47,184 bases of DNA from Minisyncoccota bacterium (GCA_041665985.1 JBAYHV010000002.1:1-47184); one strand, 5' to 3'. Counted from the stretch's first letter, positions 6,601 to 46,432 are shown. The notes: a model not told the origin generated them from the sequence alone. A program made the numbers and translations.

Positions 6601-8529
6601 AAAACCATTTTTCAAAACTTCCTTGTAACCTTCATCTGCTTTTTTTGGTTCTGTAAAATAATTAGAAAAATCATCTCCGACAAGCTGTTCGCGCGGAACT
6701 CCAGTTACGGTCTCAGTTGCTTCATTGACGTCAGTGATCTTGCCATCTTTTCCAATAGTTACTAAAGGATCAAGACTTATCTCTATAAGTCGTCGGTTAT
6801 ACGCACTAGCGATTCGCAACATTTCATCTTTTTTCTTTCGTTCAGTTACATCCCGTCCAATTGTTGAAGCTCCGATCAATTTTCCTTCGGCGTTCACAAC
6901 AGGCGAAACAGTAAGAGACACCGGAATTTCAGTACCATCTTTTTTAAGTCGTACTGTTTCATAGTGCACAACACTTTCTCCTTTTTTTATTTTTTCAAGA
7001 AGTTCAGGAATATCATTTTTATGACTTGTTGGCGCTAAAATTGAAATTGGCTTTCCAACCACTTCACTTTCAATATAACCATAAATTTTTTGAGCTCCTT
7101 TATTCCAACTTGTAATAATTCCGTCCAATGTCTTACCGATAATAGCATCATCTGATGATTGAACGATCTCAGCAAGTTGATTTATTTTTTCTTCGAGTAA
7201 TTTATGCTCAGCGTTTGTGCGCTCTGCCGTAATACCAAACGCAAGATCTTTTGACATTTCATCCAATATTTTTACTTCCTCATCATTGAATGCATTCAAT
7301 TCACCTGAATAGATTGAGATCACTCCGAATACTTTTTCATCATTAATGATAGGCAAAGCAATACTTGATCTATATCCTCTCTTCAAAGCCTCTTCTCTCC
7401 AAGGAACCATTGATGGGTTTGTCGCAATATCGCTCGCAATATTTATTTTTCCCGTCCTTACAGCAACTCCTGTTGGTCCACGACCTCGTTCAGAGTCTTC
7501 CCAAGTAAGATCGAGAGTTTCTAAATATCCAGCCTCAAACCCTGCACTTGCAACAGGGCGTATAGTTTTAGTCTGATCATTTTCTGCAAATCCAACCCAT
7601 GCTAATTTGTAGCTACCCTCTTTTACAATAATTTTGCAAACTTCATCTAACAGTGATCTTTCGTCTATAGTATGAATAAGGGCCTGATTGACATTACTCA
7701 ACATACGCAATGCACGATTCTTTTGCTGGATCTCTTTCTCAGATTCTACATGCATTTGGTCAAACTTTTTCAAACTATCAGACATATGATTAAATGTGTC
7801 TGCTAATTCTCCTACCTCGTCATTGGTATACGTATCTATATGAACACCTAGATTTCCTTTTTCAAGTTTTTCGGCAGATCTTTTCAGATCAAATATTGGT
7901 TTTGCAATTTTACCAGAGATCAAAATTGATACTAAAATACATATAATTAGAAATATAATTAGAAATATAATATTTATTTCAATTGACTTATTTTGCTGAA
8001 CCAACAAAGCGTTATTGGAATAATTGAAAACCAAATAGCCAGCAACATCGTTCTCAATTTTTACTGGTATCAAAATAATAAAATGTCCATTTTCTTCCAA
8101 TGTTGCTACCTTTTTTTTCGCAATTAAATTTTTGATAGATGGTTGGATATAATCCTGCCCCGAATCTACCATTTGAGTAATACGGCTTTCTATTAAAATA
8201 ATCTTTCCGTCGTTATTTAAAAATTCAATTTTTTCTAATTCGTTGATATTATTCAGTATCTTATCCAGAATATTTTTTCCTTCTAACTTAACATAAACAT
8301 CTACGAAATTTAATTTCTCCGCCTGAGTACCCAATACCGATAACCTTTTATTTAATGCATTAACAAATTCCAGAGAATAATTTCCTGCCTTATCCACCAT
8401 ATTGCTAAATAACACTAACCTAACTTGATTTATTTGAATTATAGTGGAAATACCTTGCAGACAAAAAACCAAAATAAAAGTAAACAGAATGATTTTATTA
8501 CGAAGTGACCAAAATTTTATTTTAAACAT
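3649..8529 (-). CDS. Giant multi-sensor histidine kinase (TM sensor, HAMP, 2 GAF, about 7 PAS/PAC, HisKA, HATPase_c)
   Basis: 1626 aa. Two TM segments bracket an N-terminal sensor region, followed by a HAMP-like DEVGELADTFNHM. There are two GAF-like blocks (LAWVGFAENDQ..., MLWIGFREDDK...) and recurrent PAS units ending in D(I/V)TERK. H-box FLSLVSHQLRTPLSG; G-boxes DSGIGIP and GGSGLGLY. Confidence 0.9.
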   Translation of the reverse strand: MFKIKFWSLRNKIILFTFILVFCLQGISTIIQINQVRLVLFSNMVDKAGNYSLEFVNALNKRLSVLGTQAEKLNFVDVYVKLEGKNILDKILNNINELEKIEFLNNDGKIILIESRITQMVDSGQDYIQPSIKNLIAKKKVATLEENGHFIILIPVKIENDVAGYLVFNYSNNALLVQQNKSIEINIIFLIIFLIICILVSILISGKIAKPIFDLKRSAEKLEKGNLGVHIDTYTNDEVGELADTFNHMSDSLKKFDQMHVESEKEIQQKNRALRMLSNVNQALIHTIDERSLLDEVCKIIVKEGSYKLAWVGFAENDQTKTIRPVASAGFEAGYLETLDLTWEDSERGRGPTGVAVRTGKINIASDIATNPSMVPWREEALKRGYRSSIALPIINDEKVFGVISIYSGELNAFNDEEVKILDEMSKDLAFGITAERTNAEHKLLEEKINQLAEIVQSSDDAIIGKTLDGIITSWNKGAQKIYGYIESEVVGKPISILAPTSHKNDIPELLEKIKKGESVVHYETVRLKKDGTEIPVSLTVSPVVNAEGKLIGASTIGRDVTERKKKDEMLRIASAYNRRLIEISLDPLVTIGKDGKITDVNEATETVTGVPREQLVGDDFSNYFTEPKKADEGYKEVLKNGFVKDYPLTIKHTSGRTTDVLYNATVYKNEAGDIEGVFAAARDVTSLKLAEEELVRKNRNLRMLSDVNQALIHSTDEKLLLNKICNIVNAFGGYKMLWIGFREDDKEKTIRPVVFEGFESGFFESIQPTWSDTDKGRIPIGIAIRTGKTYIAQNISLAELNDDWRARALKRGYQSVISLPLSDGEQTFGAFSIFAEDINAFSEDEIKILEELANDLAFGITSLRINIKSKLLEEELLKASTDRYKALFVSSRDAIMTLEGPSWKFSSGNPTAIKMFGAKNEGDFLFHEPWNLSPKFQSDGQDSMEKARKMIDKAMEEGSNFFEWTHKRLNGEEFPAEVLLSRVEQDGKTFLHALVRDITERKKLDEKLKEYAEERFKAIFDNTNDGIILADLETKKFILGNTAFCEMLGYNSDEILKLGVTDIHPNEDLPNVFEQFEKQARKELKVAKDLRVKRKDGTVFYCDINSSPVTMNGKKYLIGIFRDTTERRNSEEKIRESEEQFRKIFENGMYGVILTGSDSKFFKVNPAFCKMLGYTEEELIGKKFSEITHAENIKTDTESVPKMISGEIPYYHTEKRYIKKNGQEIWVNLLVSIIRNSDGSFRYFLGMVEDITERKSIEQKLKESEELFHSIVTTMDEGIIFHNKKGEVTMINPAAEKILSLDSKEVIGKTLEQHNPNVKFIHEDGTVFLEKDHPAMVSLKTGRSQNDILFGIDNNRGSVIWISINAEPLFSNNDSEPYASVATFHDVTREKEIEKLRVDFLSLVSHQLRTPLSGTKWLIETIQRGVTGESNPKQKEYLETLYQINERMINLVSDILNVLTLESGSIKMKKEKVLVPKLYEDLSLIMDPAAKSKSILLRSALKNGEEFFIQSDFIVLRTILENFISNAICYSESGQEIVFDMSESPEETVFSVKDSGIGIPKDDKGRIFERFYRGSNAKIVKPGGSGLGLYTSSLLAKRIGAKITFESEENKGTTFYLHIPKKPVV

Positions 8530-10673: not shown

Positions 10674-10713
10674 AAGAGGCTAAGCCTTAAGGATTTTAAA
10701 AGGCTTAGCCTCT
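10674..10713. repeat. Pair of inverted REP-like units with core GAGGCT(A/T)AGCCT
   Basis: AAGAGGCTAAGCCTT (10674-10688) and AAGGCTTAGCCTCTT (10699-10713). Same core as the hairpins flanking the RAYT gene at 41858, 42546 and 42722. Confidence 0.6.
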
Positions 10714-11381: not shown

Positions 11382-11437
11382 ATTAAATATTTAATTTAGA
11401 TCAAATATTTAAGAATCAAACATTGATCATTTTTACA

Positions 11438-11475
11438 ATTCATCATTATTACGCGACCGCGTAATAATGATGAAT
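11438..11475. repeat. Perfect 18-bp-arm palindrome
   Basis: ATTCATCATTATTACGCG ac CGCGTAATAATGATGAAT, between convergent genes. Confidence 0.8.
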
Positions 11476-11562
11476 CACAAAAAAACTTTTTTAAATAATG
11501 AGCTTAATATTAAATGAAACAATTAATTATCTTTATCTCTCTGTCATTTCCGCTATCTTTTT

Positions 11563-11632
11563 GTCATTCCCGCGCAGGCGGGAATCCAGTGTTTCAAATT
11601 TAATCCTAGATTCCCGCCTGCGCGGGAATGAC
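11563..11632. repeat. Two inverted copies of a 24-nt GC-rich hairpin unit (ATTCCC-N8-GGGAAT type)
   Basis: GTCATTCCCGCGCAGGCGGGAATC (11563-11586) and its exact reverse complement (11609-11632). Each unit is itself a hairpin (ATTCCCGC GCAG GCGGGAAT). There is a degenerate partial copy at about 11542. Confidence 0.85.
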
Positions 11633-11655
11633 AACAAAAAAATCAGAAAACTTTT

Positions 11656-26991: not shown

Positions 26992-27010
26992 AATATTTTA
27001 ATTCAAAATT

Positions 27011-27110
27011 TAAAATGCAAAAGTTAAAATTATAATTGAAAATTCAAAATTGAAATCCTTATTTTCTTTTTTTAAACTTTTTAATTTTGACTTGTAATTT
27101 TGCATTTTGA
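27011..27110. repeat. AT-rich imperfect-palindrome intergenic element, copy A
   Basis: Shares the blocks AAAATGCAAAA, TTCAAAATT, AACTTTTTAATTTT, ACTTGTAATTTTG and GCATTTT, in the same order, with 46334..46428. Confidence 0.65.
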
Positions 27111-27187
27111 TTTTTGAGCTTTGACTTATTTTTAAAAGTTAGTGCTTGGGTGACCAAAAACATAGTCACTTTGTTCCTTGTTTTTGG

Positions 27188-37805: not shown

Positions 37806-38462
37806 TTAAAAATCAACTTCAATTGCTCTTTCAAATCTGTTTACAGAAGAACAAGTATTATATCCCTTAGAAATAATAGCTGTTGAAGTAGGAGTTCTTC
37901 TATCAACGATCACATCAAAACATATATTATTTGGAGTTGTGGAAGCTATACTAAAACTATAAAGTCCTGTGCCTGGAGAAAAGTTTGTATTAGTTATAAA
38001 TACTCCAAGACACGTTGCTGTTGTATACGCATTAGAACATGACGCATCGCTATTTGAAGTATTTCCAACTTCAGGAAAAAAACCAGCCGGACAAATATCT
38101 GATTTTGAGGATCGATATAAATAAAGAGCACATTCTGTTCCTGTATCTGCATTATAAAATGCAAATTGTGATTCTCTTCCAGCAGCAGAAAGTGAAACTT
38201 GTTTAATAGTAATACTAAGAATTGCAGCTCCAATAGCAAGAAGAAGACCTGCGATCATTGAGGCATAAAGAAGAGTAAACCCGCACACTAACTTTGGTCT
38301 TGCTTCTGTTTTGCTATTATTTTTAATCTTAAATTTAAAGATTTTACTAACTGTATTGGGATACATTTTTTTTAAATTAATCGCGCAAAACGAAACCAAA
38401 GTTAGTCGTCGGGTAAATCCGTTATTTTTTCTGTTAATATTTTTCATTATTTTGTTTGCCAA
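37806..38462 (-). CDS. Minor pilin-like (pseudopilin) protein with element-extended leader
   Basis: 218 aa. The sequence is ...NRKNNGFT, then a 46-aa insert, then LLYASMIAGLLLAIG (hydrophobic alpha1 helix, no Glu5). Confidence 0.7.
   Translation of the reverse strand: MANKIMKNINRKNNGFTRRLTLVSFCAINLKKMYPNTVSKIFKFKIKNNSKTEARPKLVCGFTLLYASMIAGLLLAIGAAILSITIKQVSLSAAGRESQFAFYNADTGTECALYLYRSSKSDICPAGFFPEVGNTSNSDASCSNAYTTATCLGVFITNTNFSPGTGLYSFSIASTTPNNICFDVIVDRRTPTSTAIISKGYNTCSSVNRFERAIEVDF
38280..38413 (-). mobile_element. 134-bp TIR element (MITE-like), copy 3, in frame in the prepilin leader
   Basis: Flanked by TAAA at 38276-38279 and 38414-38417 (TTTA in gene orientation). TIRs are CCCGACGACTAACTTTGGTTTCG and CAAGACCAAAGTTAGTGTGCGGG. 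Confidence 0.8.
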
Positions 38463-39130
38463 TTACTGAACACTTCTTTTATAGTAAAAGATTTTGTACC
38501 TCCAGCAAGATAACTCCCTGTCCATGACATTGTTGAAGTAACAAGTATGGTATCAGATGAAATTGGACTCATAGTAACTACTCTAGAATATTTCGAAGCT
38601 GTACCAGTATCATATGAATATAAACCTGATGTACTATTATAATTTAATTTACCGCAACCCGATGCACCATTACCACACTGAGTTATTGTTTGATTAGAAA
38701 CATCAACTCTGCAACCAATATTATTTGCAGTTACTAAACAATTTGAAAAATCAGCTGGCCAATCAATTGGAGTTGGGACCTGTAAATAATATACATCTCT
38801 TTCATGTCTCAAATACTCAACACCCTCTTGAGCAAGATAATATGCTGTTATTTGGTCTCTTGCGTAAAAAGAAGAAAACAAAGCCTTTGAGGCAATTTCC
38901 ATTGGACCGACAATGGTCGTCAAAAGAATAGTAATAGCAACCATAGTCTCGACCAATGTAAACCCGCACACTAACTTTGGTCTTGCTTCTGTTTTGTTAT
39001 TATTTTTAATCTTAAATTTAAGGATTTTAATAACCATATTTGAATACATTTTTTTTAAATTAATCGCGCAAAACGAGACTAAAGTTAGTCGTCGGGTAAA
39101 TCCTTTTTTATATAAATTTTTGAATTTCAT
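38447..39130 (-). CDS. Minor pilin-like (pseudopilin) protein with element-extended leader
   Basis: 227 aa. The sequence is MKFKNLYKKGFT, then a 46-aa insert, then LVETMVAITILL. Confidence 0.75.
   Translation of the reverse strand: MKFKNLYKKGFTRRLTLVSFCAINLKKMYSNMVIKILKFKIKNNNKTEARPKLVCGFTLVETMVAITILLTTIVGPMEIASKALFSSFYARDQITAYYLAQEGVEYLRHERDVYYLQVPTPIDWPADFSNCLVTANNIGCRVDVSNQTITQCGNGASGCGKLNYNSTSGLYSYDTGTASKYSRVVTMSPISSDTILVTSTMSWTGSYLAGGTKSFTIKEVFSNWQTK
38963..39096 (-). mobile_element. 134-bp TIR element (MITE-like), copy 2
   Basis: Flanked by TAAA at 38959-38962 and 39097-39100. Three differences from copy 1. Confidence 0.8.
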
Positions 39131-39131
39131 A

Positions 39132-39872
39132 TTATTGGATATTTAATCTTCTTTGAGAAATTAAAGTTTGCAGATCAAATTCTGTTGATTGTTTTCCTAC
39201 TTTCCCTGTTGCTTTAAGGATCATAAGTATAAGAGGTTGTTGACGTGATGCCGCAGAAGTATTTGTAATAAATAGATCAAACTTACCTACAGTTATATTT
39301 TTTGAAGTGAGAGCTTGATTACCGCCCCCTCCTACACAAGTGCTCTCATCTTTGGAAATGGTTTTTCCATCCCATGAATAAGTTATGTCACAATTTGAAA
39401 TACTTGAATAAAAAGTTACAGACGAAACAGCTGTGGGAGGACAACCACTTATAGGATTCGAAGCAACAGTTGATCCACAAGTATAGTTGTACCCCGTTCT
39501 CAGATCTCTTACCATACTTTCTATTGAAAAATTCATATTGTTTATAACATCATTTAAAGCCTGAGCTTTTTTGTTTGCATCAATGATCGAAAGAATAGCT
39601 GTCATAGAAATTAAAACCACAATAGCAAAAAGACCAACTGAGACCATCACTTCAATAAGAGTAAATCCGCACACTAACTTTGGTCTTGCTTCTGTTTTGT
39701 TATTATTTTTAATCTTAAATTTAAGGATTTTAATAACCATATTTGAATACATTTTTTTTAAATTAATCGCGCAAAACGAAACCAAAGTTAGTCGTCGGGT
39801 AAACCCCTCAATTTTCTTATTCAACTTTTTTTTTGTTATTTTTTTATTCATTATGGAGTTACGTTTGTACAT
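39132..39872 (-). CDS. Minor pilin-like (pseudopilin) protein with element-extended leader
   Basis: 246 aa. The sequence is ...KKLNKKIEGFT, then a 46-aa insert, then LIEVMVSVGLFAIVV. Confidence 0.75.
   Translation of the reverse strand: MYKRNSIMNKKITKKKLNKKIEGFTRRLTLVSFCAINLKKMYSNMVIKILKFKIKNNNKTEARPKLVCGFTLIEVMVSVGLFAIVVLISMTAILSIIDANKKAQALNDVINNMNFSIESMVRDLRTGYNYTCGSTVASNPISGCPPTAVSSVTFYSSISNCDITYSWDGKTISKDESTCVGGGGNQALTSKNITVGKFDLFITNTSAASRQQPLILMILKATGKVGKQSTEFDLQTLISQRRLNIQ
39666..39799 (-). mobile_element. 134-bp TIR element (MITE-like), copy 1
   Basis: Flanked by TAAA at 39662-39665 and 39800-39803. Confidence 0.8.
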
Positions 39873-40525
39873 TCATCTGCTTCTGGACGAGGAGTATCAA
39901 CAGAGATCTGACCAATCGATGTTATTCTCACTATTCTACATTTATCTCCTAGGGCAGATACAACAACAATAGTAGCGTTCCCAGATCTAATATTGGAATT
40001 ATTTGCATATATTAAAGCGGAAGGATTGGGTTTGATAAAACCGATATCCAAGTTGTTTAATTGAGTAGCTGTCCCTGACGAACAAACGCCATCTGCGCAA
40101 AATCTTAATATTGTTTGACCCTGCGTAAGTCTAGGACTATCAACGGAAGTATATTCAGTCTCTGTTGGATTTTGAATATGAGTATTAAAATTAAAAGGAT
40201 ATACAACTGGATTTCCTCCATAACCGGCATCAGAATAAATAATAAAAGAGTTCGAAACAGGTGAACTTAAGTATATTCCATATCCAACATTGAGATTTGT
40301 TCCTGTTGACGCTTGTTTTGAACTAATTCCGTAAACTTGAGCCTGTCTAATCGCAAGCGCAACCTCATAAGCAGCGTTTGTCACCAAAATATCACTAGAA
40401 AATTTTGATTGTTTAAAAAGTAAAATAGAAGTAATAACAATAACAATTGTTACAACAACCATCATTTCTACAAGAGAAAAACCTTTAACCAACCTTGTTT
40501 TTGTTTTATTAATATTATTGGACAT
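39851..40525 (-). CDS. Minor pilin-like protein (GspH/FimT-like size), uninterrupted leader
   Basis: 224 aa with N-terminus MSNNINKTKTRLVKGFSLVEMMVVVTIVIV. Confidence 0.75.
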   Translation of the reverse strand: MSNNINKTKTRLVKGFSLVEMMVVVTIVIVITSILLFKQSKFSSDILVTNAAYEVALAIRQAQVYGISSKQASTGTNLNVGYGIYLSSPVSNSFIIYSDAGYGGNPVVYPFNFNTHIQNPTETEYTSVDSPRLTQGQTILRFCADGVCSSGTATQLNNLDIGFIKPNPSALIYANNSNIRSGNATIVVVSALGDKCRIVRITSIGQISVDTPRPEADECTNVTP

Positions 40526-41333
40526 TTGAAAATATTAACGCATTTAAACTAAAAACATCTGCGCCTAAAATAAATGCTAAGAAAAATCCAGCGATCATGA
40601 AGGGGGCAAATGGGACAGCACTTCTAAAATTAAATCTGCTTCGAGCAATTCCAAGCTTTTGAAAAAGCAATATAAAAATACTCCAAAGAGCTCCGATCCA
40701 AAAAGCAAAAGCAATTGCTGAAAGTGATTGTGAAAGCCCAAGAGCAAAACCCATACCCAAAGCTAGTTTTCCGTCACCAAAACCGATCCATCTTCCCTTT
40801 GAAACAAACCAGATAGCAGAAAAAACAACAAAGATCATCGGTCCTGCTAAAAGATTTAAGATCTCAGGATAAGAAAAAATACTTGCTAGATTTTTGTTTC
40901 CTACAAAATATATTAAAGATAAAAATGTAAAAGTATAAGAAAGAATATCTGGAATTATTTGATGTCTTATATCGTAAATTGTTAAAACGATCAAAATACA
41001 AAAAGCTAAATACCAAAAAGTTGAAACCAACATTGGCACATAATCCAGATTATAAAACTTTAGGAAAATCGAAAGAAAAACAATTCCTGTAATAAATTCT
41101 ACTAAAGGATATTGTGCTGAAATTTTTGTTTTACAACAACGAGACCTTCCACCTAGACATAAAAAACTCAAAATTGGAAAAAGATCATAAGACTTTATTG
41201 TCCTACCGCAAGACATACAAAAAGATCTTCCCATAAGGCCTTTACCTGTATTGAGTCGTAAGGCTACAACATTAAGAAAACTTCCAATAATGGTCCCTAC
41301 AACAAAAATTACTGTGGCAAGATAATAAAACAT
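40515..41333 (-). CDS. pilD: Prepilin peptidase (A24 family)
   Basis: 272 aa and polytopic. It has an N-terminal Cys cluster CMSCG...CCKTKI and the catalytic Asp context IGFGDGKL. Confidence 0.9.
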   Translation of the reverse strand: MFYYLATVIFVVGTIIGSFLNVVALRLNTGKGLMGRSFCMSCGRTIKSYDLFPILSFLCLGGRSRCCKTKISAQYPLVEFITGIVFLSIFLKFYNLDYVPMLVSTFWYLAFCILIVLTIYDIRHQIIPDILSYTFTFLSLIYFVGNKNLASIFSYPEILNLLAGPMIFVVFSAIWFVSKGRWIGFGDGKLALGMGFALGLSQSLSAIAFAFWIGALWSIFILLFQKLGIARSRFNFRSAVPFAPFMIAGFFLAFILGADVFSLNALIFSNVQ

Positions 41334-41375: not shown

Positions 41376-41825
41376 TTATGGTCCTACATAAGTATAATTG
41401 TAACCAATTGGAAATGTTTTTCCAAAAGTATACGCGTCTTTCATATTGCAGGTCGTTGTAGACATTGATGGAGTTTCTAGTTTTGTTGCAAGACAAAAAT
41501 CTTTTTTTCCTGTTCCTGTATCATCACCATACGGAGTGTATAAATAATCATTACCTTGTGGATCTTTTGGAACAGTATTATTTGAAAAATATGAAGAAAT
41601 TTCACTCAAATTTTGTGGCCAAGTCTTATAACCACTTTCCTGCCAAGAATTTTGAATTGCTAAAGAAATATTTTTTAAATCCCCTAAGCGAATAGAGTCG
41701 CGCGATTTTGCTTTGGATGATAAATACGAAGGAATAGCTACAGCAGAAAAAATACCAATAATCGCAATGACAACCATAAGTTCAATAAGGGTAAAACCAG
41801 CATTTTGTTTTTTATTTACCTTCAT
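41376..41825 (-). CDS. Type IV pilin-like protein
   Basis: 149 aa with N-terminus [26 protein letters not shown]. Confidence 0.85.
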   Translation of the reverse strand: MKVNKKQNAGFTLIELMVVIAIIGIFSAVAIPSYLSSKAKSRDSIRLGDLKNISLAIQNSWQESGYKTWPQNLSEISSYFSNNTVPKDPQGNDYLYTPYGDDTGTGKKDFCLATKLETPSMSTTTCNMKDAYTFGKTFPIGYNYTYVGP

Positions 41826-41857: not shown

Positions 41858-41880
41858 TGTGCGAGGCTAAGCCTCGCACA
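41858..41880. repeat. REP hairpin at the 3' end of the RAYT gene
   Basis: TGTGCGAGGC TAA GCCTCGCACA; it overlaps the RAYT stop codon. Confidence 0.8.
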
Positions 41881-42535
41881 ATGAGTAATCTAGCCACTCT
41901 ATGATCATATTTTCAAATGAAAAATCATATTGAGGAAAAGATTCCCTATATAAAATGACAGATTCTTCTCTTTGTTCATTAAGATAATCTTTTAAACTTG
42001 AATATTTGTAAGTATTTAAAAATTCAAGTGCCAATTTTCTATCTGTTATTTCTTTCTTTTTCCACCCACAATCAATGATTCCAATAGGATTTAGGTGAAT
42101 GTAACTAAAAAGATACTTTAAATATCGATCTTCATTTACGTGTTGTGATTTAAAAGTTCCTTCAAAAAGTGAACCAGTGCGATGATATTTTTTATTAAAA
42201 TACATTGTATAACCAGTAGCTAACTTATGCATAAATTGACTAGCTCCCTCTTGGGATTTTACTTTAATGAGAATATGAAAATGATTCGTCATCAAACAAT
42301 AAGCACCAATTTGTACAATTTTTTCACCATCATATATTTCTATTGCTTTAGTAAAAGACCACTTTTCTCTTTCTCCTAATTTATTAAATTCAAATTTTTT
42401 ATCTGAGTTAGATAGAAATAACAAAGAAAGAAATCTTTCATAATCACGTTCATCTTGAAAAATTATTCTTTTATCAACTCCACGATTGTAAAAGTGATAA
42501 TACTCATCTTCCGCAAAAATCATATTTCTAGACAT
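41867..42535 (-). CDS. REP-associated tyrosine transposase (RAYT, IS200/IS605 Y1 HUH family)
   Basis: 222 aa with HUH motif MTNHFHILI and catalytic Tyr context FSYIHLNPI. It is flanked by inverted REP hairpins. Confidence 0.8.
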   Translation of the reverse strand: MSRNMIFAEDEYYHFYNRGVDKRIIFQDERDYERFLSLLFLSNSDKKFEFNKLGEREKWSFTKAIEIYDGEKIVQIGAYCLMTNHFHILIKVKSQEGASQFMHKLATGYTMYFNKKYHRTGSLFEGTFKSQHVNEDRYLKYLFSYIHLNPIGIIDCGWKKKEITDRKLALEFLNTYKYSSLKDYLNEQREESVILYRESFPQYDFSFENMIIEWLDYSLCEA

Positions 42536-42750: not shown

Positions 42751-43110
42751 TTAACAACCAGATGCAAAAGCTACTCCTGCTTCCGTTAATATAGTATCAG
42801 CAGTATTGCAAGTTCCAGAACCAGTATCAGTAGATCTTACTGTAACTGAAAAAGTTCCATCCCCTATACAAGTAGACCCCCCCGCAGTAACTGTTGTTTT
42901 AGAAAAAGTAGGAATAACAAGTGCAGTAGATCCAGTTCCCCCATCACATTGAGTTATTAGAGATGGAAAAAGACCAGAAGCTTCTGCTTTGAACGCTGCT
43001 TTATTTGCTTTTGTTCTTGCACTTGTTAGAGAAGTAAGAACAACAGCAGAAAGAATACCGATGATCGCGATAACGACCAAAAGTTCGATCAATGTAAAAC
43101 CTTTTTTCAT
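42751..43110 (-). CDS. Type IV pilin (major-pilin-like, short)
   Basis: 119 aa with N-terminus [28 protein letters not shown], two Cys pairs and its own terminator. Confidence 0.9.
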   Translation of the reverse strand: MKKGFTLIELLVVIAIIGILSAVVLTSLTSARTKANKAAFKAEASGLFPSLITQCDGGTGSTALVIPTFSKTTVTAGGSTCIGDGTFSVTVRSTDTGSGTCNTADTILTEAGVAFASGC

Positions 43111-43256: not shown

Positions 43257-43631
43257 TTATTTACAAGTAGCAGGAAAAACAGCATTATCCTGAGTAATAC
43301 TCGTACTTACAGTAGGACATCTTGCTAAAACTGTAGAATTAGCTGCAGTTACAGGATATGTAAATGTACTACCTCCAGACAAACAAGTTTCATCACTTGC
43401 AACTCCAAGTGAAAATGTAGGATGTGTACTAAGTCCTGAAGTTGCAACTGTACCACTATCACAAGCACTGATCATAGCAGGAAGAGCTGAAGAAAGTTCT
43501 GCTTTAAAAGCAGCAACATTTGCCTTATCTCTCGCTCCTGTTAGAGAAGTAAGAACAACGGCAGAAAGAATACCGATGATCGCGATAACGACCAAAAGTT
43601 CGATCAATGTAAAACCTTTTTGTTTATTCAT
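43257..43631 (-). CDS. Type IV pilin (major-pilin-like, short)
   Basis: 124 aa with N-terminus [30 protein letters not shown]. Confidence 0.9.
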
Positions 43632-43868: not shown

Positions 43869-45068
43869 CTAAATTGATGAAGACAGGTTATAGATAGGAA
43901 TAAGTACAGATGCCAAAAGAAAGGCTACTCCTAATCCTAAGGCTACGATCATTATAGGTTCGATCAGATCAACGAGAGTGTCCACAGCATTGACCACCTC
44001 TCTCTCGTAAAATTTTGCCAGAGTATCAAGAATTCTTCCAAGTTCTCCTGTTTCTTCTCCTACCTTTGCCATCTGAACAATAATTCCAGGAATTTGTTCA
44101 AATTTGGAAAAAGAATCAGAAAGAGTTGCTCCCCCTTTTACAGATTCAAGAGAAGAAAGAAGAATGGTTTGATAAACTTTGTTATCAACAACATCAGCCG
44201 TTAATTCAAGAGCTCTAAGCATTGGTACTCCAGAAGTAAGCAAAGTATTCATGTTGTCCGCAATTCTTGAAAGATAAAGTTTTTTATACAAAGTCCCAAT
44301 ATAAGGAACGCGTAATTGGAATTCAGATAAAGCGTAAGAACCTTTTTCTGTTTTGCTATATTTAATAATAAAGAAAACTCCAATAGCAGTTGCTATAACC
44401 AAAAATATTCCGTAATCCCGAAGAAAATTACTGATATTAATAACTATCTGCGTGTATATTGGAACAGCTTGTCCTGAATCAGTAATGATTGAAGTAATTT
44501 TTGGAATCACAACAGTAAACATAACGGCCATAACGGAAATGAAAGTAAAGACCACAAAGGCTGGGTAGATCAAAGCATTTTTTGCTTTTGATGATACTGC
44601 AAAACTTCTATCCAAATAATCTGCCAAATATGTAAAAGTTAGATCAAGTTTTCCAGATTCTTCTCCAGCTTTGACCATGTTCACATAAAAGTTTGAAAAA
44701 ACTTTTGGATGCTTTGATAAAGCTTTTGAGATCGCAGTTCCTCCTTGCAAGTCACTTGAAATTTCCACTAGCACCAAACCTAGCGCTGGATTATCCGCTT
44801 GATCAGAAAGCATTCTAAAAACTCTAAGAGCAGAAACTTGGGCACTAAAAAGAGTTGCAATTTGACGCGATAAAATAACAACATCTTTGTTCTTAACTCG
44901 ATTAAAAAAACTAAATGTTTGATTGAATCCTTTTTTTTCTTCATTAATACTTACGATCACAAGTCCTCTCTTTTGAATTGAGGCAATAGCACTGTCAGTA
45001 GAAACTGCATCTACAGATCCGCTTATTTGTCCGCCTTTTGGGTCTATTGCTTTGTAGTTGAAGAGCAT
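43869..45068 (-). CDS. pilC: Type IV pilus platform protein PilC (T2SS F family)
   Basis: 399 aa with two T2SSF repeats, three TM segments and the motif MVKAGEESGKL / MAKVGEETGEL. Confidence 0.9.
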   Translation of the reverse strand: MLFNYKAIDPKGGQISGSVDAVSTDSAIASIQKRGLVIVSINEEKKGFNQTFSFFNRVKNKDVVILSRQIATLFSAQVSALRVFRMLSDQADNPALGLVLVEISSDLQGGTAISKALSKHPKVFSNFYVNMVKAGEESGKLDLTFTYLADYLDRSFAVSSKAKNALIYPAFVVFTFISVMAVMFTVVIPKITSIITDSGQAVPIYTQIVINISNFLRDYGIFLVIATAIGVFFIIKYSKTEKGSYALSEFQLRVPYIGTLYKKLYLSRIADNMNTLLTSGVPMLRALELTADVVDNKVYQTILLSSLESVKGGATLSDSFSKFEQIPGIIVQMAKVGEETGELGRILDTLAKFYEREVVNAVDTLVDLIEPIMIVALGLGVAFLLASVLIPIYNLSSSI

Positions 45069-46307: not shown

Positions 46308-46333
46308 ATATTTGAAGTCAAAATTTAGAAGTC

Positions 46334-46428
46334 AAAATGCAAAATTGCAATTCAAAATTCAAAATTTCTCTTATTTAACTTTTTAATTTTTACTTGTAAT
46401 TTTGACCTTTGCATTTTAACTTTTAAAT
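46334..46428. repeat. AT-rich imperfect-palindrome intergenic element, copy B
   Basis: Same ordered blocks as 27011..27110. Arms are GTCAAAATGCAAAATTGCAA and TTGTAATTTTGACCTTTGCATTTT. Confidence 0.65.
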
Positions 46429-46432
46429 TATC

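Follow-up and report, generated by a model that had tools for sequence, protein, structure and literature searches.

Repeats of the miniature inverted-repeat transposable element (MITE) type, and their in-frame tolerance within genes, are already known in prokaryotes. In-frame intragenic MITEs have been established for the Rickettsia palindromic elements (RPEs) and for intragenic ERIC, BOX and QMITE1 repeats, and the RPEs and other intragenic MITEs are described as small palindromes of about 100-150 bp that are in frame, stop-free and compatible with a functional host gene (PMC10969869). Similarly, the Correia elements of Neisseria are MITEs of 100-200 bp with terminal inverted repeats of about 25 bp and long mRNA hairpins; they mostly lie directly 5' of genes, are able to alter or disrupt coding sequences, and are cut by RNase III at their repeats (PMC10969869). 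The present analysis concerns an element of 134 bp that occurs three times in a contig of a Minisyncoccota bacterium (GCA_041665985.1, JBAYHV010000002.1:1-47184; 47,184 nt), hereafter the window, meaning the whole stretch of DNA analyzed. Each copy interrupts a minor pilin gene of a type IV pilus locus within the Gly-Phe-Thr codons at which the prepilin is processed. A non-autonomous hairpin MITE, combined with removal of the leader by the prepilin peptidase PilD, is a likely explanation of the three copies.

All three copies and their host genes are on the minus strand. Copy A (39666-39799, 134 bp) lies inside minor pilin A (39132-39851), has the gene-sense ends CCCGACGACTAACTTTGGTTTCG...CAAGACCAAAGTTAGTGTGCGGA, and contains internal ATGs at 39752-39750 and 39740-39738. 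The TTTA upstream of it (39800-39803), with the preceding GGG, represents the old Gly-Phe-Thr codons (GGG TTT A/, the slash marking the junction with the element), and the TTTA downstream (39662-39665), with the element-terminal GGA, forms a regenerated GGA TTT ACT, the G/FT of FTLIEVMVSV, in which the slash marks the cleavage site. Copy B (38963-39096, 134 bp, with TTTA at 39097-39100 and 38959-38962) lies in minor pilin B (38447-39130), and copy C (38280-38413, 134 bp, with TTTA at 38414-38417 and 38276-38279) in minor pilin C (37806-38447). All three are inserted at the identical nucleotide of GGN TTT A/CN. The copies are 93-98% identical, with exactly 3 (A-B), 8 (A-C) and 9 (B-C) differences, and their terminal inverted repeats span 23 nt with 5-6 mismatches. 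Searching the 47 kb with the 23-nt arm, allowing up to three mismatches, gave three matches against zero expected.

Outside the elements the three genes are dissimilar. In an alignment of the three copies with 40-nt flanks, the 30-mers beyond the duplicated TTTA were identical at 7-18 of 30 positions, which is background, and the mature parts of minor pilins A, B and C are 21-22% identical. Similarity breaks off exactly at the TTTA on both sides, with upstream homology of no more than 8 nt. Each element and one TTTA (134 + 4 = 138 nt) add 46 codons that are free of stops in the gene frame, while the reversed orientation holds 5-6 stops. In silico removal of the element and one TTTA gave the short leaders MNKKITKKKLNKKIEG/FTLIE, MKFKNLYKKG/FTLVE and MKNINRKNNG/FTLLY. 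An earlier sequence-only reading of this DNA had described the coordinates and shared insertion nucleotide, the 4-bp TTTA flanks, imperfect terminal repeats of about 23 bp, 3 to about 10 differences between copies, flanks that could not be aligned, the open 46 codons, the stop brought into frame by inversion, the canonical short leaders restored by removal, and three further pilin genes with uninterrupted GGT TTT AC; that description proved correct in all particulars.

The geometry of the insertion accounts for the rebuilt cleavage site. Members of the wider family all end in ...GTG TGC GGR, and the right junction at GGN TTT ACN reads GGR TTT ACN (Gly-Phe-Thr). The terminal GGR and the TTTA duplication thus regenerate Gly-Phe-Thr in phase before an unchanged mature pilin, and the arms are stop-free in the pilin phase, where they read T-R-x-L-T-L-V and P-K-L-V-C-G. 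Prepilin peptidases cut after the Gly that precedes the hydrophobic N-terminus. According to the proposed mechanism, three different minor pilin genes would each have received a recent copy in the TTTA of their Gly-Phe-Thr codons, each insertion would rebuild a complete Gly/Phe-Thr site ahead of an unaltered mature pilin, and the old leader, the old G-F-T and 43 element-encoded residues would together become an unusually long basic leader. The PilD of the locus would then cut off this leader, removing everything upstream of the second G/F and leaving the assembled pilin unaltered. Element-bearing genes, including those with the older copies of relative L035, are full length and are conserved like element-free orthologues (62-81% over the mature part), suggesting that they remain functional and that, as the sequence-only reading had proposed, in-frame insertion upstream of a regenerated G/F is tolerated.

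Two routes of translation are predicted, depending on whether the frame is kept. Six of the nine large pilin-site copies (the three in the window, L035_min1, L006_p1 and L031) have a length that, with the 4-bp duplication, is divisible by three and contain no stop; these would be read through from the original coupled start. The frame-breaking copies (L035_pre, L039 and L006_p2) each hold an internal ATG in an A-rich, native-like context, at which initiation would occur, a use of element-internal starts that had also been foreseen. Such initiation is plausible because Shine-Dalgarno sites appear not to be used and the context is the same A-rich one as at native starts. A Shine-Dalgarno-like tetramer at -22 to -5 was found for 0 of 29 window open reading frames (ORFs) of at least 150 aa; the organism appears to use no Shine-Dalgarno sites, with starts following A/T-rich sequence. 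With shuffled interiors, P was 0.02, 0.02, 0.05 and 0.20 for the four independent open copies. For copies outside pilin genes, 6 of 48 element-orientations were stop-free and 8 of 24 had an in-frame length. In the window genes, read-through from the original, translationally coupled ATGs is most likely, giving leaders of 55-62 aa; to our knowledge these would be longer than any known. The database gene caller instead chose internal ATGs (P0001, at the second ATG of copy A, P0049 and P0050). Versions starting at an internal ATG have basic leaders of 22-29 aa ending in ...PKLVCG/F. In this they resemble type IVb or other long-leader prepilins (class III signal peptides), which carry a basic 20-30-aa leader ending in Gly and are processed by an A24 peptidase, with natural type IVb leaders reaching about 25-30 aa. 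Unlike in type IVb prepilins, the long leader here is supplied by a mobile element in a short-leader (type IVa-like) gene.

Comparison with relatives (loci denoted by L numbers) showed that the sites exist without the element. A protein search with pilin A recovered about 45 orthologues, nearly all with leaders of 9-17 aa running straight into GFTLIEVMVSV, including the closest at 73-75% identity. In L032-L034 (pilin A 73% identical) the A, B and C sites are all empty, and neither L038 nor L041 has an insertion; these loci are syntenic with the window, and empty orthologous pilin sites were recorded in L031, L032, L035, L038, L039 and L041. A recent tandem duplication as the origin of the three window genes is ruled out by comparison of the relatives' loci.

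Other relatives carry insertions of their own at the same nucleotide. In L031, from a higher-GC lineage, A and B are empty (MSSG/FTLIE, RSRG/FTLIE) and the C orthologue holds a 137-bp member with an unrelated interior, in frame and open. The first minor pilin after PilD in L006/L016 contains a tandem of two distinct family members at GGG TTT A/. In L006 the first (134 + 4 nt) is open and the second (135 + 4 nt) is frame-breaking, with the pilin body starting at its internal ATG (MKLNFF...PKLVSG/FSVVE). In L035 (62%) A, B and C are empty and the window subfamily is present in two other pilin genes, the interiors of the two copies being only 69% identical. One of these, L035_min1, is open from the upstream ATG (...KKNKGF/ILTLTLLSFC...AKLVCG/FTLVE); the other, L035_pre, is 132 bp and frame-breaking, with a TAA in the old leader, an internal-ATG leader MIFKFRKQNNSKTIARPKLVCG/FTLVEL and an intact pilin body. 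The closest relative, L039 (75%), is empty at A and carries in another pilin gene a frame-breaking element that is 91% identical to an L035 copy in a different gene. Finally, the B and C orthologues of L040 (67%) contain at GGA TTT A/ a perfect hairpin of 41 nt with related ends (CCCAGCAC...GTGCTGGG). This mini-hairpin, CCCAGCACCTTCTTTTTT tga AGAAAAAAGAAGGTGCTGGG, adds 41 + 4 = 45 nt in frame, giving GFT-QHLLFLKKKEGA-GFTLIE, and has copies at 6603-6643, 7228-7268 and 2453-2492, the third being intergenic after PilC, with a T-run following it, and terminator-like in appearance.

In all, 11 same-nucleotide insertions were found in six genomes, with at least five unrelated interiors, and of six relatives' loci that had been selected solely through protein homology, three had at least one pilin-site insertion. 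Non-homologous members (L031, the two of L006 and the L040 mini-hairpin) occupy the same site, which can only be explained by independent insertions at the G-F-T codons in different genomes. Three proteins with long or odd leaders (P0004, P0034 and P0038) were considered as excision footprints and rejected; they hold no arm remnants and represent ordinary variation or start miscalls. Pilin B orthologues in L035 (5593-6318) and L032 (2971-3642) have leaders of 40-50 aa without a recognizable element; these are either long by nature or what is left of earlier insertions that have decayed.

The element is one of a dispersed family. A pattern of the two arms (ACTAACTTTRGT and ACCAAAGTTAGT, spaced by about 96 nt) was matched at 9 loci in six metagenome-assembled genomes (MAGs) of the GTDB genomes, mostly Candidatus Paceibacterota / Patescibacteria, and at 22 loci in metagenomes; the source genome of the window is in neither collection. 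With loci found later, the total reached 33 distinct copies from public MAGs and groundwater or sediment metagenomes, of which at least five lie on four contigs of one MAG, SMAG_U8111. Members measure 129-140 bp and have the termini (T/C)CCGCACACTAACTTTGGTAT ... ATACCAAAGTTAGTGTGCGG(A/G), complementary over 21 nt, with paired changes between the arms at positions 1 (C·G in 18, T·A in 13), 4, 5 and 18-20. The left arm reads CGACGAC in all three window copies, while the family consensus is CGCACAC. Interiors of most copies are 50-60% similar to one another, which is background. Among 32 copies with both flanks, 16 have a perfect 4-bp direct repeat, 6 have one mismatch and 10 have none. The perfect repeats are not always TTTA: TTTA/TAAA is most frequent and TAGA, TATG and CTTG also occur, and re-reading of boundaries gave TATA in L004 and the 5-bp repeats GATAG and CTTCA in L019. 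At pilin sites the duplication is perfect in every copy. Neither a TA duplication of the IS630/mariner type nor TTTA as an extension of the inverted repeats fits the flanks. The sole ORF through the elements is the host gene's frame, and no transposase is encoded. Because of its small size, terminal inverted repeats, variable target duplications, dispersed copies and lack of coding capacity, the family can be assigned as a MITE-like non-autonomous element of Paceibacterota (Patescibacteria, also known as the candidate phyla radiation, CPR). A scan against Rfam at E ≤ 1 over 36-45 kb returned no family for the element, and a viral-contig scan and a plasmid blastn gave no match to it.

Copies outside pilin genes are all intergenic. 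In 13 of 25, an ORF of at least 80 aa has its ATG 1-15 nt from the element end (L001, L003, L004, L006:500-634, L007, two in L008, L010:5816-5950, L014, L018, L020, L021:12948-13081 and L028). In L014, L018 and L020 the start codon is within the duplicated TATG, so that the duplication regenerates the start. The L028 copy was considered as intragenic, being within a 6.7-kb open stretch, and rejected; the element is followed 12 nt downstream by the real start (MKRFRK...). Among the intergenic loci, L026 (1280-1553) holds a head-to-tail dimer of near-identical elements with TCTA between them and TAGA as outer flanks, and L017 (1516-1581) holds an internally deleted derivative of roughly 66 bp beside a full copy. 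L009 (DATDTO010000070.1, an 'archaeon' bin) and L005 (DATDWN010000002.1, Paceibacterota) are identical around the element in reverse orientation, and the archaeal assignment is probably a binning error.

Set against the described systems, the pilin-site copies share with RPEs their persistence in frame and without stops in six of nine large copies. RPEs, however, occupy many unrelated genes at surface-exposed positions and are kept in the mature protein, whereas the intragenic copies of the present family occur only at one pilin processing motif, which is regenerated, and are predicted to be cut off. The phylum also differs (Patescibacteria), and the Rfam scan gave no hit that would indicate a sequence relationship. 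We know of no clear terminal inverted repeats with a 4-bp duplication as a typical feature of RPEs. As with Correia elements, about half of the non-pilin copies lie close to start codons. Correia elements duplicate TA, carry promoters and an IHF site, and have no tie to a cleavage motif. The present family duplicates 4 bp, and inside its elements no sigma-70-like promoter or terminator consensus was found. A 2024 review of prokaryotic MITEs makes no mention of pilins, leader or signal peptides, or Patescibacteria (PMC10969869). Judged from that review and from general knowledge, what is new is the family and its phylum, the geometry by which the motif is regenerated, the repeated insertion at a single processing site, and the donation of a start codon and leader.

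The recurrence at G-F-T codons can be understood as a survival filter. Of the three forward phases of the window elements, just one is stop-free. Only the TTT|A phase, here written TTT/A, and one orientation would keep the frame open, and only the leader side of a cleavage site would be dispensable. In eight pre-insertion leaders there are 13 other TTTA/TAAA sites, of which only two are in the matching TTT/A phase, and motifs without TTTA are empty, e.g. GGT TTT TCT in the uninterrupted minor pilin at 39851-40525 and GGG TTC ACT in L035 A. A TTTA target combined with phase, orientation and leader dispensability suffices to account for the site. Surviving copies sit just 5' of where functional protein begins, since non-pilin copies are intergenic and many lie 1-15 nt from an ATG. 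GGNTTTA as the target was rejected: of the 23 non-pilin GGNTTTA sites in the window none holds an element, nor does any intergenic copy of the family occupy one. The sequence-only reading had named a MITE targeting the prepilin motif; the MITE part stands, by virtue of the dispersed family, conserved termini, duplications, empty sites, independent insertions in other genomes and pilin genes, intact host genes and the use of internal ATGs in broken frames, while targeting is not established, as the target is TTTA and the filter is enough.

Several observations weigh against a MITE placed by such a filter and neutralized by PilD. Pilin sites in the window are occupied at three of six, compared with 0 of about 1,060 other TTTA sites, and the pilus loci examined hold more copies at pilin sites than between genes. 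A purely neutral filter does not obviously predict this frequency; possible reasons are local hopping in the pilin cluster, a genuine preference for the site, or some advantage gained from the hairpin. The 55-62-aa leaders, which contain a degenerate first GFT and a short hydrophobic stretch (LTLVSFCAINL), are predicted PilD substrates only. Furthermore, 10 of 24 non-pilin copies have no clean duplication (at least 2 mismatches in 4 nt) and yet have perfect termini, which is awkward for a simple cut-and-paste DDE model. In roughly 350 kb examined, no element longer than 140 bp bounded by the family arms and no cognate transposase was found.

Those occupancy figures and the 11 same-nucleotide insertions would fit active targeting, in which the subfamily of the window, L035 and L039 (WIN/L035/L039) is specialized for pilin genes as a co-adapted 'leader cassette'. 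The machinery would prefer a GGN-TTTA-C context or the pilin 5' region, and the element would bring a start codon, a basic leader and the terminal Gly codon, so that a working prepilin would result wherever it inserted; its hairpin may in addition tune how the minor-pilin cistrons are expressed, whether by cleavage of the RNase III type, by pausing, or by breaking the coupling to upstream translation. Such targeting is possible, if on the whole unlikely. The second L006 element lies at the GGN-TTTA junction beside the first copy, and the five known WIN/L035/L039 copies are all in pilin genes and in one orientation, but exclusivity within genes is already explained by phase and orientation, and GGNTTTA alone is not the target. 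The 3' half of the element encodes a conserved leader-like peptide, (M)xIKxFKFKxxNNxKTxARPKLVCG, yet its divergence is roughly neutral (61% amino acid vs 76% nucleotide identity). Either strand of the 134-bp block folds into a long, stable hairpin, at -28 to -38 kcal/mol and with z of -2.6 to -5.2, and in Correia elements RNase III is known to cut at the MITE termini (PMC10969869). Counting against this reading, folding of the antisense strand is no weaker than that of the sense strand, and the element lacks a promoter or terminator consensus. By analogy with Correia and ERIC elements, a regulatory role of the mRNA hairpin, which the sequence-only reading had raised, is plausible. The bolder proposal, that the WIN/L035/L039 subfamily homes to G-F-T as a mobile prepilin-leader cassette co-adapted with PilD, with the host exploiting the hairpins for minor-pilin stoichiometry or timing, is doubtful.

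In a more exotic variant, ribosomes may skip the hairpin, taking off at the first GGN-UUU and landing at the second. Translational-bypass inserts are known from phage T4 gene 60 and as the 'byp' elements of Magnusiomyces mitochondria. The arrangement here shares with them a mobile hairpin in a coding sequence flanked by matching codons (GGN UUU ... GGR UUU), a potential take-off and landing pair. Hopping is not needed here, unlike in bypass inserts, since the frame stays open through six of the large copies and the rest have starts of their own inside the element, and the window copies have no stop codon after the first GGN UUU.

Spread by recombination would instead require a single ancestral insertion, copied among pilin genes by gene conversion or template switching through the short conserved GGNTTTAC / FTL(I/V)E coding sequence, with concerted evolution keeping the window copies alike. 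The derived left arm common to the window copies means that they share one progenitor, conversion at GGNTTTAC would mimic the TTTA duplication, and L035_pre and L039, in different genes, share 15 identical nucleotides after the element (TTTACATTGGTAGAA). However, the similarity of the window genes stops exactly at the duplication, in other genomes the site is taken by non-homologous members and by different subfamilies, and many intergenic family copies have varied duplications. Gene conversion, one of the origins offered by the sequence-only reading, is improbable on these grounds.

Mobilization by a Y1/HUH transposase, in the manner of REPINs or of IS200/IS605 palindrome-associated transposable elements (PATEs), would place the element 3' of TTTA without true duplication. 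A candidate enzyme is encoded within the locus by an IS200-like Y1/HUH transposase gene (41867-42535, minus strand), and its counterpart in L039, the closest relative, occupies the same place (697-1350). Targets typical of IS200/IS605 are T-rich 4-5-mers such as TTAC and TTGAT, and many TCCG-type copies have TTTA on one side only. The perfect repeats of unrelated sequence (TAGA, TATG, CTTG, TATA, GATAG and CTTCA), however, are the signature of staggered-cut duplication, and the element has long terminal inverted repeats, not two subterminal hairpins. The Y1 gene has flanking hairpins of its own, GAGGCTTAGCCTC, with such palindromes at about 41863, 42550, 42726 and 10676-10712, that are unrelated to the element arms. 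Its product has a Y1_Tnp match (PF01797, 1e-8) and is weakly RAYT-like, the protein scoring 38.7 bits against the RAYT cutoff of 80. The family does not resemble REP/REPIN-RAYT systems or PATEs in its variable repeats, in its arms or in the Y1 protein of the locus. No Y1 gene was present in the stretch examined of L035 or L040, both of which bear elements. This route is highly improbable. An invertible or excisable phase-variation switch is scarcely credible, and so is an ordinary conserved long leader: the element is palindromic, inversion would bring in stops and the 8-nt direct repeats (GGNTTTAC) could allow precise excision, but none of the 11 gene copies departs from the productive orientation, no recombinase is adjacent or otherwise tied to the element, no inverted allele was seen among related contigs, and the ordinary leader is refuted by the empty orthologues.

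The interrupted genes belong to a minus-strand series that comprises PilC, two major-type pilins, the Y1/HUH transposase gene, a pilin, PilD, an uninterrupted minor pilin, the three interrupted minor pilins and LigA. PilC lies at 43869-45068. The two major-type pilin genes (42751-43110 and 43257-43631) have empty GGT TTT AC sites, and the transposase gene lies between pilin genes. The pilin upstream of PilD (41376-41825) has an empty GGN TTT ACN site, and its L035 orthologue carries an element. PilD (40515-41333) is an A24-family prepilin peptidase (PF06750, 1e-27; PF01478, 1e-11). The first minor pilin after PilD (39851-40525), the uninterrupted one, has orthologues in L035 and L039 that hold an element. 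The original ATG overlaps the upstream stop (TAATG) in minor pilins A and C and lies 2 nt past it in B, and the same overlap or abutment of starts and stops is found in element-free relatives. The mature sequences begin FTLIEVMVSV... (A), FTLVETMVAIT... (B) and FTLLYASMIAG... (C), and the mature part of A is 70-81% identical to element-free orthologues. At the second GFT, N_methyl (PF07963) matches A above the curated cutoff and B just below it, both with Glu+5; pilin C (GFTLLY), like its orthologues, is without Glu+5 and has no Pfam match. With that exception for pilin C, the type IV prepilin hallmarks are present, namely Gly -1, Phe +1, a hydrophobic N-terminal helix, Glu +5 and a PilD in the locus.

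If leader removal by PilD operates as proposed, the processing site offers a selfish element a new class of safe harbour within genes of an essential type, without expense to the protein: the insertion occupies the disposable side of the site, which is rebuilt by its terminal bases and the duplication. The same logic could extend to Sec, Tat and lipoprotein signal peptides. The family adds a MITE-like group to the under-studied Patescibacteria/CPR, in whose episymbionts type IV pili are considered central to attachment to the host and uptake of DNA. For annotation, gene callers put the starts of these pilins at element-internal ATGs, and classification of pilins by leader length would be misled. 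Leaders of 22-62 aa on type IVa-like pilins further represent a natural experiment that probes the substrate tolerance of prepilin peptidases.

Other repeats occur elsewhere in the window. Repeated fragments resembling the 3' half of a tRNA lie at 28912-28964, 31237-31286, 31366-31415 and 31503-31552, adjoining tRNA-Thr and tRNA-Met genes (29098-29169 and 31521-31594), and may be integration-site remnants. AT-rich repeats of 50-60 nt (AAAATTCAAAATT-type) at 26999-27127 and 46315-46430 are inverted, 83% complementary and 19 kb apart, with a local inverted pair at 27003-27117. Unrelated palindromes are present at 11558-11637 and 11430-11483, one with 32-nt arms that are 94% complementary (TTTTTGTCATTCCCGCGCAGGCGGGAATCCAG) and the other with 26-nt arms.

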